Shown here in pieces: positions 21,058 through 26,652 of a DNA stretch of 64,000 bases (position 1 is the stretch's first letter; every line of letters starts with the position of its first letter). The translations under genes were made by a program, and so were the position numbers. The stretch is from TPA_inf: Saccharomyces (taxonomy: Eukaryota), in NCBI GenBank assembly GCA_000146045.2, contig BK006938.2, positions 1,467,934-1,531,933 on the forward strand. The letters run 5' to 3'. The notes under the pieces were generated by a model. It ran no database searches. It saw nothing but the letters and a program-made list of their open reading frames with translations, and had not been told where the DNA came from.

Positions 21058-21664
21058 TATTGATGGAACATCCAGAAAAATGTATTCAAAATGACTGGTA
21101 CAGCTACCTTAACCACTCTGCCTCAATGTGATTTTTATCCTCTTTTTCGCTCAAATTTTTACTTTTCTTCTCTCTTCGTCAAGTACTATTATAACGACAG
21201 CGATAGGAAAAAAAACCAACATCGGACGAGAATAAATAATACTTTAGCGTTCAAAATGACATTCCTTTAAAATTCGATATGAAATTTTCCGCGATTAATT
21301 CGCCGAGAATACGACAAAAAAAAAGATAAACATCAGAAAATTCTATTATTAGATTAGATTTTATATTAGATAATGAATTAATACAGGTAATAATTATAGA
21401 GAGGAAATAAAAATAAACAGATAAGTTATTTACATCTTCTAACTAATATTCCATTACAAGTGAACGAACATGAAAAGATCATATAAAACCCTTCCAACAT
21501 ATTTTTTTTCCTTCTTTGGTCCCTTCAAGGAAAGAGCGGTCTTTCTTCTTGTTCTATAATAATATTATTAAAAAAGCACATAAAAACTTGATTGTGTAGC
21601 GATAATAAAAAAATTTTTTCGATATTATAGGAGTATAATGTCTCTAAACTCAAAATTAAAGAAC

Positions 21665-21865
21665 TTAGAATAAGAAAGCGACACCGGCAGCGACGGCAGC
21701 ACCGAAGACACCAGCACCCAAAGCGTTGGAAGCAGCAGCACCAGTGGAGATCTTGGTGCTGGTGGTGTTGGAACCGTTGGTACGGTTGGAACCATTGGTA
21801 GAAACGTTAGCAGCTTGGACAGCGGCAACAGTAGCGAAGGCAGCGACGATGGTCTTGAATTGCAT
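21665..21865 (-). CDS. YDR524C-B: Small Ala/Gly-rich membrane protein, 66 aa (YCL048W-A paralog)
   Basis: The 66-aa [30 protein letters not shown]...GVAFLF has a signal-peptide-like N-terminus and a hydrophobic C-terminus. Confidence 0.65.
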
Positions 21866-22662
21866 TGTTTTGTTGATGATTAGTGTTGATTGAAACTTAT
21901 GTTTAATGATGATTTTCCTCTAAAATCAAAAACAATATTAACTAATAAAGTAAATAATACAGTAGGAGAAGATGGAAAAGAAAATCAAGAATTTCTCGAG
22001 TTCCTTATATATGAGGAGAAAAGCCAGGAAAACCACCGCGATGACACACAGCACCATATCTCATGTAACAAACGTGAAAAAAGCGATGATTTTTTTTCTG
22101 CTTTCTTTTTCTCATTTCTCAAGCGGATATTCCGCTTGCAAAAAGAAAAGGCGTGGCTCTGGTCTTCGCTATTTTGGAAATAAACTTTGGCGTCCTACGC
22201 CCAGAAGCGGCCAAAGCGGCCAATCACGCCCGAAGACGGGACCGCACGGCTCCCAACGAGTCGTTTTTTTGGAACTGAAAAAGGCCCAACGTTGGGCCTA
22301 GGCCCTTACCGCGCCCATTTCGGAAACTGCATTACTTTTTCGGGACGTATTCTCGGGAAATAAGCAGGTCCAGATCCGCGTAGCATGAATGGGGCGCCAA
22401 AACAGTCGCGGGTAACGAAAGAGCGCAACCACGCGTATATTCCGGGCCGGTGAGGGGCAACGCGCATTGTCCCGGGGCGATATAATCCATGTACCGGAAC
22501 CCGCACTTTTTCGACTTTCTTTCCCCTTTTCCTGTCTCCTATTGTGCGAGAAAGGTTTGATTGACAAGAGATCTTTACTGATCGATCTTAGTTAGTCCTC
22601 GAATAAGCATTTTGCAAGTACCAGTCATCGTATTAGAGAACATACAACTTTAGAATTACACT

Positions 22663-22902
22663 ATGCACGCCCGCGACTGGTTTTTAGTTTTTATTGCAAT
22701 TTTCATTCCTCCCTTAGCAGTCTGGCTAAAAAGAGGTTTTTTTACCAAGGATCTGCTCATTAACTTTCTGTTATTTTTACTAGGGTTTTTCCCTGGTCTG
22801 ATCCATGCTTTGTACGTGATCAGCTGTCATCCATATGAGGAGAACGAGGCCCGGTACTCACACCTCTCCTCCTCGGATGATAACTATGGTAGTTTAGCAT
22901 GA
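22663..22902 (+). CDS. SNA2: PMP3/UPF0057-family small membrane proteolipid, 79 aa
   Basis: MHARDWFLVFIAIFIPPLAVWLKRGFFTKDLLINFLLFLLGFFPGLIHALYVISCHPYEENEARYSHLSSSDDNYGSLA, with two transmembrane helices. Confidence 0.9.
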   Translation: MHARDWFLVFIAIFIPPLAVWLKRGFFTKDLLINFLLFLLGFFPGLIHALYVISCHPYEENEARYSHLSSSDDNYGSLA

Positions 22903-23160: not shown

Positions 23161-24480
23161 ATGGACTTACTGGGCGATATAGTGGAGAAAGATACATCTG
23201 ACTCTGTTGAAAGTAATGACAATGGCACTCTTAGTACCAACAACTGTGGAACGGGATTTCCCGAGTTGTACAAACCCAAGAAAATATCATCTTGGAAGGA
23301 AAGACTAAGAGAAAAAAGAGCCCAAAAGAAAAAAACTAGTGGCAAGGATGCTGAAAAGCAACAAACGAGTACAGACGCCCCACTATCCGAGGCAAAATCT
23401 ATCCATAATGAAAATATTAAAGTTCTGCAGGGAATGAGTGATGAACAAATCGTGCAAGAACGTGAGGATCTGTATAACTCTTTAGATCCCAAACTGATTG
23501 CCAAGCTATTGAAAAACATAAATAAAAGAGCGAAGGACGAAAACAACACTCCATTATTTGCAGAAATAGAAGGCGCTTCTGGTACCTGGGTAGGTGGCAA
23601 CAAGCAAGGCATATACGATCTACCACCGTTAGACGATGAAGATGTAGACGTTGCCTTAGAAATTAGGCCTATGTTAGGCAAAGATGCAAAACATGTTCAA
23701 TTTGAAGAAGCAGGAAAAGAAAAAGACGTGGAAGAAGAAGCAAAAACTAATGATGACGTCGATGATATCGCACCCTTAGATTTCCAGATGGCACAATGCA
23801 TTGATCATATGAAAAATGAAGAGCTATTCAAAGACGTTCATTTTATCAAAGAGGAGAGCCAAAATGAAATCAATTTAGAGAAACTTGATATAAATGATCC
23901 TAATTTCAACGATAAATTACACGAAAAATACTTCCCTGATTTGCCCAAAGAGGTCGACAAATTAAAATGGATGCAACCGGTTCAGCAAAAAACAGACAAG
24001 AATTACATCATTGAAGACGTATCTGAATGTAGGTTTGACTTTAATGGCGACCTTGTTCCACCCACAAGACAAATAGACTCTACCATTCACTCAGGGTTGC
24101 ACCATCACAGCGACTCGCCTGAACTCGCCGGTTACACCATAGTGGAGTTAGAACATTTAGCAAGATCCACTTTTCCTTCTCAAAGGTGCATTGCTATACA
24201 AACTTTGGGGAGAATACTTTATAAGCTAGGCCAAAAAAGCTACTACCAGCTAGTGCCAGAAATAGATGCAGACACATACAAGGAAGACGGAAGCATATCG
24301 AACGTTATGGATAAGATCTATTCCATGTTTTGGGACTTGATTAAAGACGGAAAAGTCATCGAATCCTTAGAAATCTCCTCTGATGAGAAATTCACTAGAA
24401 ATTTGTCAGTCAGAAATTATGCTATTGATGCACTTTGGTTATGGAAACAAGGCGGTGGGGACTTCCGAACCAAGAAATAG
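23161..24480 (+). CDS. RBA50: RNA polymerase II-associated protein (RPAP1 homolog), 439 aa
   Basis: 439-aa acidic/charged ORF; position and length match RBA50. Confidence 0.85.
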   Translation: MDLLGDIVEKDTSDSVESNDNGTLSTNNCGTGFPELYKPKKISSWKERLREKRAQKKKTSGKDAEKQQTSTDAPLSEAKSIHNENIKVLQGMSDEQIVQEREDLYNSLDPKLIAKLLKNINKRAKDENNTPLFAEIEGASGTWVGGNKQGIYDLPPLDDEDVDVALEIRPMLGKDAKHVQFEEAGKEKDVEEEAKTNDDVDDIAPLDFQMAQCIDHMKNEELFKDVHFIKEESQNEINLEKLDINDPNFNDKLHEKYFPDLPKEVDKLKWMQPVQQKTDKNYIIEDVSECRFDFNGDLVPPTRQIDSTIHSGLHHHSDSPELAGYTIVELEHLARSTFPSQRCIAIQTLGRILYKLGQKSYYQLVPEIDADTYKEDGSISNVMDKIYSMFWDLIKDGKVIESLEISSDEKFTRNLSVRNYAIDALWLWKQGGGDFRTKK

Positions 24481-24542: not shown

Positions 24543-25092
24543 ATAATGTGTCTCTTTGAGTCATGTTCCTTAGCTTCTTTTTTAAAAAAACTGTCTCAGG
24601 TATTTTCGCTTCTTTGATCTCCCAATCTCCATATCCCAACCACGTTCATATACCTCAAGCCGATTTCAACCAAACTTGAACGAAAAACTCAGACAGGTCT
24701 GGTAAAATATCTGCAATGAAGTACGCACAACTCAATTGGTATTAATTAATATAGAACATATTAAATGTAGAGGAGAGAAAATTAAATTACATGGGAAACC
24801 AATCTTGAAGGTCCAATAAAGTGAGATGTGCATGGATGAATTATCCATGCAAAAGCAAAAACGAAAAAGTCGCAACCTCAATCATGCCTTTTCTCTCCAA
24901 ATAACTTTTAGAACAAAAGTCAAATATAGGAAAGGGAAAATATCATTCTCCAAAGCAAACATTAAGTCACTGATCAACAGAGAACAATGGTTTATCTTTG
25001 CACATTGACACATTCATCGAGGGTTTCAAAGCACTTAAAAAGAGCATGATTCAGTTCAAAAAAATGATCCTCGACAAACTTAAGTTGTGCAA
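24543..25092 (-). ncRNA. SNR84: Candidate long box H/ACA snoRNA, ~550 nt, most likely snR84
   Basis: It sits in a 2.1-kb ORF-free gap directly after the RBA50 stop. The minus-strand transcript would end ...GAGACACAUUA, with ACA three nt from the 3' end. A perfect 8-bp stem GCATGGAT-gaatt-ATCCATGC lies at 24830-24850. From memory, snR84 (~550 nt) maps between RBA50 and HLR1; I could not verify the boundaries. Confidence 0.4.
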
Positions 25093-26652
25093 TTCACATC
25101 AGCATATCCATATAAAGCTTATAGTGTGATGATGAGTACTCTCATTAACTAGCTCTGTTATTCAAACTTTAAACTTCGGATACTTGACTGCTCTCTTCGT
25201 TTGTAAGTAGCTTGATTGTAGTTACATCGTCGTTCTCATCGCATCTTTTTTTATTAGTTATGAAAAATTTTTCACTTTTCACCTAGTTAGGATACCCGGC
25301 TGGATTCTTTTGTACTAACCTCTATGGATTTCGTGGTCCTCTCATGTCACGTCAAAATTTCAGATCATATGTCAGGGTAACATTTATGCACTCGGAGATT
25401 GTCAAACTTATTGACGCAAGCATTTACTATTTTTCCGCACAAGCACCATGTGTGATAACATGCAGATCGCCCATCTGAGCAGTAATATCTAGTCATTATA
25501 TAGTCTATCAAATGTTATACTTCCAGAATTTTTCGCCTCGGCCCAAACATGTACATTTTCTTGGTGGCTTTTTTATTCTGGCTTTCTTTTCCTCTAACGT
25601 TCAACATGGTTGAAAATGCTCTCAAGTCAAATAATAAAACACAATCATAAGAATTCAAAGATGTGCATGAGAACTCTTAACAATACATATTTTTACTGAA
25701 ACACTTTGGTTAGCATCTTGTGATTACTTTATTTATATAACCTAGTCGCCCCTCCCCTGTCTGTACTGTTCTTGCAGGTAAATTCAGGAAATAATACATC
25801 CTCCACGACTACAACATGTGCAAGTACTATCCATAATAGGTGTAATCATAGAGAAGCAGTCCTAAGGAAATAAAATCAAAGAAATTAGGTAAAGGTTGGG
25901 TATTGATAGATGAAAATGTTTTTGCAAGTTAAAAAGGAAAATATGCACATTCTCTTATAACCAAATTCGTCTGACATCGATATATCTTTTCATATAAAGT
26001 TCTTCCCCTTTACCATTCACTCCATGATGTCGTACCTGTTACACTACAGTGCCTGCTTGATTGCGCATTCATAATGGCTGTACACCGTTTACCCAATGCA
26101 TTCTCGTCTGCAAAGAGAAGGATATACATCTTTTTCTGGTAATAACATGTACCGATTAGGAAATTAAGACCCTGCTTTCACGCGTGCTCCTACCATTTCC
26201 GGTAATAAAAGTTCGGGTAAGATTTCTTTTCCAAACGAGCTTACGTGTCGCATCGACAAATATGGCGAGTGCTCTTATATAAGTAGGCAACATCTAAAAA
26301 GAATGGACATCTTTTTTTTCAGTGTGAAGACGTTATCGTGTGAGTATTAATAAAGAGTTGTAATTTGATAATAAGATAACCAAGGAGTAAATATATAAAG
26401 TTCACCACTGCTCTGTTATCTCTTTTTTATAGAGTTCGGAAATCCTCACAGATTATAACCAACTAATCGTCATTCATTTCAAAAAAAAAAAAAAAGGAAG
26501 AATTAGAGCTCTTCCACAATAGTGGCTATTCCAGGCATAATTTCAAATCAAGTGGCAATTTTACGCTCCTCATTCATTTTCCTGTATTATACTTTAATTA
26601 TTCTTATTTCGCTTTTTTTCTCAAGGTGACCTGTTGTATCACGTTAGCTGAA

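Follow-up and report, generated by a model that had tools for sequence, protein, structure and literature searches.

A long, GC-rich conserved block between YDR524C-B and SNA2 as a probable shared divergent promoter region in Saccharomyces

Judged by its constraint, position, and motif content, the island rich in guanine and cytosine (GC) between the genes YDR524C-B and SNA2 is, with high probability, the core of a long conserved non-coding control region that is common to the divergent promoters of the two genes. The island is located in a 64-kb stretch of the right arm of Saccharomyces cerevisiae chromosome IV (hereafter, the window; positions are counted from its first nucleotide), where an intergenic region of 797 bp separates the divergently transcribed open reading frames (ORFs) of YDR524C-B (21665-21865, minus strand) and SNA2 (22663-22902, plus strand), with RBA50 (23161-24480, plus strand) beyond the latter. 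These coordinates bear out the location given in an earlier note on this DNA, which described the island at 22160-22520 and proposed either a structured RNA or a strong regulatory platform. The conserved sequence is larger than the stretch noted there. It extends over 510 bp (21991-22500, unstranded; hereafter, the block), with the GC-rich island as its right two-thirds, and lies between the two divergent genes with a conserved TATA-type element facing each gene at its edge. The block is non-coding, is about as invariant as coding sequences (CDSs), carries TATA-type elements at both edges, and contains footprints and motifs that recur across genera, which together support the regulatory platform. 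Constraint, footprints, synteny history, and motif recurrence were each measured. On this reading, the block is an unusually long, GC-rich case of an ordinary shared divergent promoter and not the first of a novel kind of element.

Orthologous loci of S. paradoxus, S. mikatae, S. arboricola, and S. kudriavzevii were retrieved via their RBA50 proteins, together with two further S. paradoxus-like contigs; five-species columns refer to S. cerevisiae and those four species (S. uvarum and S. eubayanus are not in the alignment). Gene order and intergenic length were kept across the Saccharomyces loci compared. In the block, 60% of the columns are invariant among the five species, a proportion like that of the RBA50 CDS (63%), AGE1 (65%), and snR84 (60%), and nearly double that of the two flanks of the same intergenic region (32-35%; other intergenic DNA of the locus: 33-40%). 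Pairwise identity to S. cerevisiae is 90/81/76/78% in the block, whereas it is 75/62/50/51% at four-fold degenerate sites of RBA50. Purifying selection thus acts on the block about as strongly as on the neighboring CDSs. Its conservation is concentrated in sixteen invariant runs of 6-19 bp with variable positions between them, at least 12 invariant footprints lying inside the bounding TATA-type elements, and in the alignment such runs of invariance broken by variable positions are the classic pattern of phylogenetic footprints.

Two dubious ORFs had been assigned to the island. API2/YDR525W (109 aa; 21972-22301, plus strand) covers just its left part, and YDR524W-C (21470-21559) lies outside, in the 3' untranslated region (UTR) of YDR524C-B. 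If API2 or another ORF of the island were a real gene, coding constraint would explain the conservation, and gene callers place ORFs of 100 and 115 aa at the same position in S. mikatae and S. kudriavzevii, in addition to the 109-aa ORF in S. cerevisiae. However, the API2 frame is broken by frameshifts and in-frame stops in each of the four other species, with several shifts of frame relative to S. cerevisiae, and substitutions are evenly spread over codon positions (e.g., 14/12/11 and 24/23/20). Insertions and deletions of 1-2 nt are scattered throughout the block, and a six-frame Pfam scan found no domain. API2 is not a conserved gene, the block is non-coding, and we give almost no credence to a coding explanation.

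The GC content of the island is 55.1% over 22160-22520 and 58.7% over 22200-22480, lower than the ~60% first reported, but its GC richness is real: 22160-22520 is the GC-richest 361-bp segment of the whole window (99.9th percentile). The observed/expected ratio of CpG is 1.35 in the island vs. 0.81 in the window. The strings and the palindrome quoted by the earlier note were found at the positions given for them, whereas its description of the island as full of CGG/CCG triplets does not hold as an enrichment, with 21 triplets observed vs. 23.7 +/- 4.9 expected from the dinucleotide content (P = 0.74). The many CGG/CCG triplets are thus an effect of composition. A blastn search against a large collection of bacterial plasmids, made with a bacterial origin in mind, gave no match.

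An exact 16-bp palindrome had been described at 22283-22298. It is present there, but its true length is 18 bp (AGGCCCAACGTTGGGCCT, 22282-22299), and it overlaps a second perfect palindrome of 12 bp (GGGCCTAGGCCC, 22294-22305), which places three AGGCCC hexamers in alternating orientation within 24 bp (22282-22305, unstranded; hereafter, the triple AGGCCC element). Perfect palindromes of at least 18 bp occur somewhere in 30% of Markov shuffles of the window; the palindrome alone is therefore unremarkable. When only the 361-bp island is considered, they occur in 0.3% of shuffles, but this island-only comparison is post hoc. Among species, the arms (GGCCC/GGGCC) are retained in all lineages but S. 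arboricola, where both arms changed without compensation, and the third AGGCCC hexamer (22300-22305) is invariant. The 6-bp center differs between lineages (AACGTT in S. cerevisiae, AACGTC and AACTTC in two S. paradoxus lineages, AACATT in S. mikatae, and AGAGCC in S. kudriavzevii). Perfect two-fold symmetry exists in S. cerevisiae only, and selection for symmetry is not supported. Because the arms and the third hexamer are conserved and the center varies by lineage, we consider the perfect symmetry to be a recent accident in S. cerevisiae; as read from the alignment, the constrained object is GGCCC-N6-GGGCC-N-AGGCCC. Conserved half-sites with a free spacer fit a protein-binding site better than a hairpin, and the element is probably a dimer or multimer binding site. 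A Logan contig from an S. paradoxus-like strain (L011 1-30, the reverse complement of ~22285-22312) ends ~20 bp past the palindrome, with GGCTCGATTCGTCGGGCC in place of GGCCCAACGTCGGGCC; this contig end was not used as evidence because the inverted repeat may have caused an assembly break or error.

These data on composition and symmetry bear on the idea that the island became GC-rich as a side effect of biased gene conversion acting at a recombination hotspot in the promoter, with a chance palindrome in what is only an ordinary promoter. The frequency of long palindromes in shuffled windows, the CGG/CCG counts that fit composition, and the confinement of the perfect palindrome to S. cerevisiae are in line with this idea. 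The substitution pattern is not: on terminal branches within Saccharomyces, changes from A/T to G/C number 0.21 per site and those from G/C to A/T 0.27, which corresponds to an equilibrium GC of 0.44, and because this is below the present value (0.59), the GC content of the island is being retained and is not driven upward now. In addition, G/C positions are retained with a CDS-like invariant fraction, conservation extends to the arms of the palindrome and to the third AGGCCC, and Lachancea has tandem repeats of a related motif (see below). We therefore regard biased gene conversion as an unlikely explanation.

A structured non-coding RNA gene in the island, with the palindrome as a hairpin of its transcript, was the other proposal of the earlier note. 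The region is GC-rich and rich in inverted repeats, its conservation is similar to that of snR84, and the plus strand folds slightly better than shuffled sequences (z = -1.78; 5 of 100 shuffles were as stable). As single-stranded DNA, the S. cerevisiae palindrome forms just a 7-bp stem (-7.6 kcal/mol, z = -2.2). However, the minus strand folds no better than shuffles (z = -0.09), and the only Rfam family at gathering score in the 64-kb window is snR84 (24557-25093, minus strand); with a permissive E-value, the best match in 21850-22700 had an E-value of 0.15 and less than half of the gathering score. The RNAalifold covariation term is a penalty (+4.75), with many broken pairs and any double change in only 6 of 144 pairs. 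The palindrome stem shows breaks or wobbles and no compensatory changes, it is broken in S. arboricola, and its 'loop' is the fastest-evolving part. Because the covariation test used six closely related sequences and has limited power, the result is an absence of support and not a proof. The block also sits upstream of both TATA elements. A tRNA gene or relic, or a site for RNA polymerase III (TFIIIC), was considered and rejected: ARAGORN returned nothing, and no A or B box was present within two mismatches. With no Rfam match, no excess folding stability, and unfavorable covariation, we judge a structured RNA to be extremely unlikely. Lachancea fantastica carries a tRNA-Ala(AGC) gene (L009 1866-1940) in the space that separates its YDR524C-B orthologue from the neighboring DCG1 orthologue; none was present at the loci of the other species examined, and the block has no similarity to it.

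The invariant runs of the block were compared with known binding-site types by means of short consensus strings. Such matches serve as leads rather than as tests; factor binding, the gene served by each part, and every factor name are inferred. At the left edge of the block, the TATA box of YDR524C-B (TATATAAG on the minus strand, 22004-22011) lies ~140 bp upstream of the ATG at 21865 and adjoins a conserved CTCGAG (21995-22000); TATAWAWR is kept in all five species, and TTATATA (22005-22011) is invariant. It is followed by the footprint ATGACACACAGCAC (22041-22054, unstranded), of which ATGACACACA (22041-22050) is invariant and the 11-mer ACACACAGCAC recurs upstream of the YDR524C-B orthologue of L. 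fantastica (L009 872-882). The longest invariant run, AAAAGAAAAGGCGTGGCTC (22141-22159, unstranded), spans 19 columns; within it, GTGGCTC, kept in five of five species, resembles what we take to be a Crz1-type core (GNGGCKC). GGCGTGG has two copies in interval IG1 of L. fantastica vs. 0.2 expected.

Two copies of a TTTGGCG motif are present in inverted orientation. The first, ACTTTGGCGTCC (22184-22195, plus strand), contains the invariant ACTTTGGCGT (22184-22193), and the second, GGGCGCCAAAAC (22392-22403, minus strand), is the inverted-repeat partner of 22186-22195 and contains the invariant CCAAAAC. Between them are CCAATCA (22220-22226, plus strand), which presumably corresponds to a CCAAT-box-type consensus and is kept in four of five species (CCGATCA in S. 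kudriavzevii), the invariant run AGACGGG (22234-22240), and the footprint GGAACTGAAAA (22271-22281, unstranded), which lies directly left of the palindrome with GGAACTG (22271-22277) invariant. The sequence AACTGAAAA recurs in the upstream regions of L. fantastica and Naumovozyma dairenensis. Inside the triple AGGCCC element, GCCTAGGCC fits a pattern that we assume to be Skn7-type (GNCNNGSCS) and is kept in all five species. To the right of the element, the footprint AAGCAGGTCCAGATCCG (22362-22378, unstranded) consists of the invariant runs AAGCAGGTC and AGATCCG with one variable base between them.

The part of the block nearest to SNA2 has a different set of candidate sites. The invariant GCGGGTAA (TTACCCGC on the minus strand; 22408-22415), kept in five of five species, is presumably a Reb1-type site (consensus TTACCCG); an Abf1-type match at 22405, which overlaps it, was rejected as specific to S. 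cerevisiae (one of five species). ACGCGT (22431-22436, unstranded; four of five species) is a match to what we take as the MluI cell-cycle box (MCB) type, and this hexamer is enriched in interval IG1 of L. fantastica (4 vs. 0.4 expected) and of Zygotorulaspora mrakii (2 vs. 0.3). AGGGGCA (22453-22459, plus strand), invariant in all five species, is presumably of the stress response element (STRE) type (AGGGG). At the right edge, ~180 bp upstream of the SNA2 ATG at 22663, a GC box is combined with a TATA-like element that would serve this gene (GGGCGATATAAT, 22475-22486, plus strand; TATA-like part 22480-22486), and GGGCGATATAA is invariant. A match to an A-tract that we assume to be Azf1-type is also present in the block and is kept in all five species. 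The Rsc3-type CGCGC is not enriched in S. cerevisiae.

The CGG and CCG triplets had been read as a signature of Zn2Cys6 factors, with the nearby URC2 as a hint, but this argument is weak. Only one clean conserved pair exists, and it falls outside the range originally considered: CGGATATTCCG, an inverted CGG-N5-CCG (22124-22134, unstranded), has invariant triplets around a variable spacer (GTATT, AATAT) in all five species, has a counterpart in L. fantastica (CGGAATTTTCCG, L009 884-895), and is the single convincing candidate in the block for a dimer site of zinc-cluster type. We know of no factor with an assigned CGG-N5-CCG spacing. An everted CCG-N4-CGG pair (22230-22239) is kept in four of five species. 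Patterns for the heat shock element (HSE), Gal4, Put3, Ppr1, Hap1, the pleiotropic drug response element (PDRE), and the carbon source-responsive element (CSRE) were absent from the block or not conserved. The block resembles site clusters of the Gal4 family in its conserved inverted CGG-N5-CCG with variable spacer and its everted CCG-N4-CGG, but differs from them in that triplets are not enriched, no scanned classical type is both present and conserved (aside from the bare CCG-N4-CGG spacing), and the palindrome lacks any CGG triplet. The proximity of URC2 has no bearing on which factor binds.

Similar motifs recur at orthologous positions in other genera. With invariant Saccharomyces 7-mers taken as an unbiased set, we found 25 matches upstream of the L. 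fantastica YDR524C-B orthologue vs. 7.7 +/- 3.2 expected, seven of the 25 being an AC microsatellite. The upstream region of this species (1.8 kb) contains tandem arrays of TAGGTGGGCCG (x3.9), GTTTGGC (x3.6), TTTGGACGT (x4.4), and TTACGCG (x2.3), and that of Z. mrakii (1.0 kb) contains an array of TGGCGTC (x4.3); the arrays are located at L009 796-838, 1208-1262, and 1326-1341, and at L008 2459-2488. The TAGGTGGGCCG array resembles TGGGCCTAGG (22292-22301) of the triple AGGCCC element, and the GTTTGGC and TTTGGACGT arrays are comparable to TTTGGCGT of the TTTGGCG motif, to which the TGGCGTC array of Z. mrakii is also related. The L. fantastica region also holds AACTGAAAAA in addition to CGGAATTTTCCG and ACACACAGCAC. 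These short G+C-rich arrays look like homotypic clusters of binding sites. On the SNA2 side, Kazachstania africana has a Reb1-type site (CGGGTAACGA) and a GC-box/TATA pair (TCCGGGGCC-CTATAAAT; TCCGGGGCCCTATAAAT at a position equivalent to 22475-22486) upstream of SNA2. The intergenic region of Kluyveromyces lactis contains three TTACCCG (0.1 expected), all within 400 bp upstream of SNA2.

Gene order in other yeasts reveals a further aspect of the history of this interval. In L. fantastica and Z. mrakii, which are outside the whole-genome duplication (non-WGD), a gene of the Asp/Glu-racemase family (PF01177; 245-272 aa) lies exactly between the YDR524C-B orthologue and SNA2. This gene is the orthologue of DCG1, and its Saccharomyces relatives are the DCG1 genes of chromosome IX. 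The corresponding genes in L. thermotolerans, L. lanzarotensis, and Eremothecium cymbalariae were named Dcg1p by their sources, and gene numbering in Torulaspora globosa, E. cymbalariae, and other Lachancea species agrees with this position. According to a passage of PMC4629796 that summarizes Wong & Wolfe (2005), the DAL cluster, including DCG1, was put together by gene relocation after the WGD. Because DCG1 sits there in non-WGD yeasts and the DAL cluster arose by relocation, the YDR524C-B/SNA2 intergenic region is the site vacated by DCG1.

This history raises the question of whether the island, for which an eroded gene relic had been named as the fallback, is a decaying remnant of DCG1 (or of its coding GC content) that has had no function since the move to the DAL cluster. 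Apart from the gene order, the Dcg1p-named genes, and the post-WGD relocation as summarized in that passage, the idea is favored by a local GC-rich patch in Z. mrakii, which covers an interval including DCG1 (54-57% vs. 41.5% for the locus). However, no relic sequence was detected. A hidden Markov model (HMM) of the DCG1 family, run in six frames on the intergenic region of six Saccharomyces genomes, scored below zero (positive control in Z. mrakii: E = 8e-98), a DCG1 tblastn search against the region found nothing (E > 1), and the Pfam scan was empty. The block is under purifying selection, and a neutral relic ~100 million years old would not reach CDS-like invariance with discrete footprints. 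Moreover, N. dairenensis and Candida glabrata, post-WGD species that also lack DCG1 here, have no GC island at the orthologous place; K. lactis has none either. The locus history in the fallback thus fits, the relic itself does not, and we consider it very unlikely. The interval is comparable to the ancestral locus of a DAL-cluster gene in that it is the DCG1 position of non-WGD yeasts while DCG1 of Saccharomyces is in the chromosome IX cluster; it differs in that nothing recognizable of DCG1 is left and what remains is the constrained regulatory DNA of two neighbors.

Gene calls at two of these loci do not fit the sequence. DCG1 of Z. mrakii is intact in one frame (L008 2662-3402), whereas the calls on the Logan contig comprise two fragments and, in the GC-rich DNA upstream, a spurious ORF of 82 aa. 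SNA2 (MHARDWFLVF...) is intact but uncalled in the assembly used for C. glabrata (L007 5570-5785), where the annotation has an ORF of 56 aa on the other strand; this locus has no YDR524C-B orthologue, and the upstream neighbor is AGE1.

Taken as a shared divergent promoter, the ~510-bp region at 21991-22500 would be non-transcribed and serve two promoters of RNA polymerase II, with YDR524C-B read leftwards from the TATA box at 22004-22011 and SNA2 read rightwards from the TATA-like element at ~22480-22486. Most likely, it works as a dense array of sites for sequence-specific factors. The SNA2-proximal third (~22400-22490), with its Reb1-type, MCB-type, and STRE-type matches, GC box, and TATA-like element, would be the old SNA2 promoter. 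The remainder (ATGACACACAGCAC, CGG-N5-CCG, AAAAGGCGTGGCTC, the two inverted TTTGGCG motifs, and the triple AGGCCC element) most likely drives the very strong expression of YDR524C-B. The high GC content would then reflect many packed G+C-rich motifs held by purifying selection, and the perfect palindrome would be a conserved inverted repeat that became fully symmetrical only recently and only in S. cerevisiae. Conserved T-rich tracts (22088-22112, 22263-22269, and 22503-22530) flank and bisect the GC-rich block at spacings of ~150 and ~235 bp; such tracts, combined with the GC-rich DNA that they enclose, could place one or two nucleosomes on the upstream region.

Divergent promoters of the GAL1-GAL10 type are similar in that the genes are read outwards from ~0.7-0.8 kb, each with its own TATA element, around a central block of G+C-rich sites that includes at least one site of the CGG/CCG type; they differ in that the block described here lacks a Gal4-type CGG-N11-CCG and its conserved stretch is much longer (~510 bp). 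Literature searches by gene and intergenic names (YDR524C-B, YDR525W-A, API2) found no paper on the YDR524C-B/SNA2 interval. YDR524C-B encodes a small protein of the HOR7/DDR2 family, and its expression is seen across conditions (PMC3161974). Its orthologue in Kluyveromyces marxianus is the most abundant transcript reported, and the promoter of this gene (PKmIMTCP1) is fully active only when ~612 bp long, losing activity stepwise at 400 and 194 bp (PMC7808952). The same distance of 612 bp, counted upstream from the ATG of YDR524C-B in S. cerevisiae, ends at 22477, which is the edge of the block. Thus, PKmIMTCP1 belongs to an orthologous, extremely highly expressed gene, and its long upstream requirement matches the extent of the Saccharomyces block; in contrast, the intergenic region of the related K. 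lactis is 2.3 kb long, has no GC island, and is unalignable (K. marxianus itself is represented here by PMC7808952 alone). SNA2 is among the repeatedly validated targets of Fkh1/Fkh2 in chromatin immunoprecipitation (PMC9024378).

Several observations weigh against the interpretation as a conserved control region of both promoters. The block gave no alignable match with nhmmer or short-word blastn in K. africana, N. dairenensis, C. glabrata, Z. mrakii, or L. fantastica. GC richness is unnecessary for promoter function because K. lactis and N. dairenensis do without the island, and the palindrome element is dispensable in at least one species because S. arboricola has lost both arms. The factor assignments come from matches to short consensus sequences and are to be taken as candidates. 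Part of the motif vocabulary was picked after the Lachancea sequence had been seen, and tandem repeats inflate its counts; the sharing of motifs is therefore supportive rather than decisive.

A more specific proposal, which we put forward tentatively and think possible but not probable, is that the block is a compound, enhancer-like assembly of motifs without an assigned yeast factor (GGGCC-N-AGGCCC, TTTGGCGY, ATGACACACAGCAC, and CGGA-W3-4-TCCG), which have persisted for >100 million years, singly in Saccharomyces and in tandem arrays in Lachancea and Zygotorulaspora, and that this assembly drives a gene whose expression is among the strongest in these yeasts. It would descend from the old divergent promoter of YDR524C-B and DCG1, having survived the departure of DCG1 and become fused to the SNA2 promoter.

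Outside the block, the transcript of YDR524C-B also showed strong conservation. Within the 11 kb of aligned locus, no other 300 bp are as conserved as its 3' UTR (21342-21641, minus strand), in which the dubious ORF YDR524W-C lies; 87% of its columns are invariant in five species, above any CDS there, and a stretch of >110 nt is almost identical in all five. The 3' UTR varies too little for covariation to be assessed (0 compensatory pairs, term +0.76). Among the targets of Nab6, an RNA-binding protein that acts on 3' UTRs as Mrn1 does, YDR524C-B is reported to be the most enriched (bioRxiv 10.1101/2022.09.30.510326). In the CDS (21665-21865), S. cerevisiae shares 84-91% of four-fold degenerate sites with each of the four other species, whereas the range in RBA50 is 50-75%; synonymous sites of YDR524C-B are therefore strongly constrained, as would be expected from extreme expression and codon bias or from an additional constraint at the RNA level. 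RBA50 proteins labeled S. cerevisiae (P0006 and P0007; YJM248, YJM1078, and others) share only 85% identity with the reference and are as close to the S. paradoxus RBA50 as that species' own protein, which suggests an S. paradoxus introgression over the RBA50 locus in some S. cerevisiae strains.

For the biology of these yeasts, a control region at this position would provide a concrete reason for the API2 phenotype, given that this dubious ORF overlaps heavily constrained control DNA. The invariant runs supply a footprint map for the YDR524C-B promoter, whose K. marxianus orthologue is already used in biotechnology as a very strong promoter, and they bring out three or four conserved motifs without an assigned factor. 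Finally, the ancestral position of DCG1 is pinned to the YDR524C-B/SNA2 interval, where its relocation left constrained regulatory DNA and not a pseudogene.

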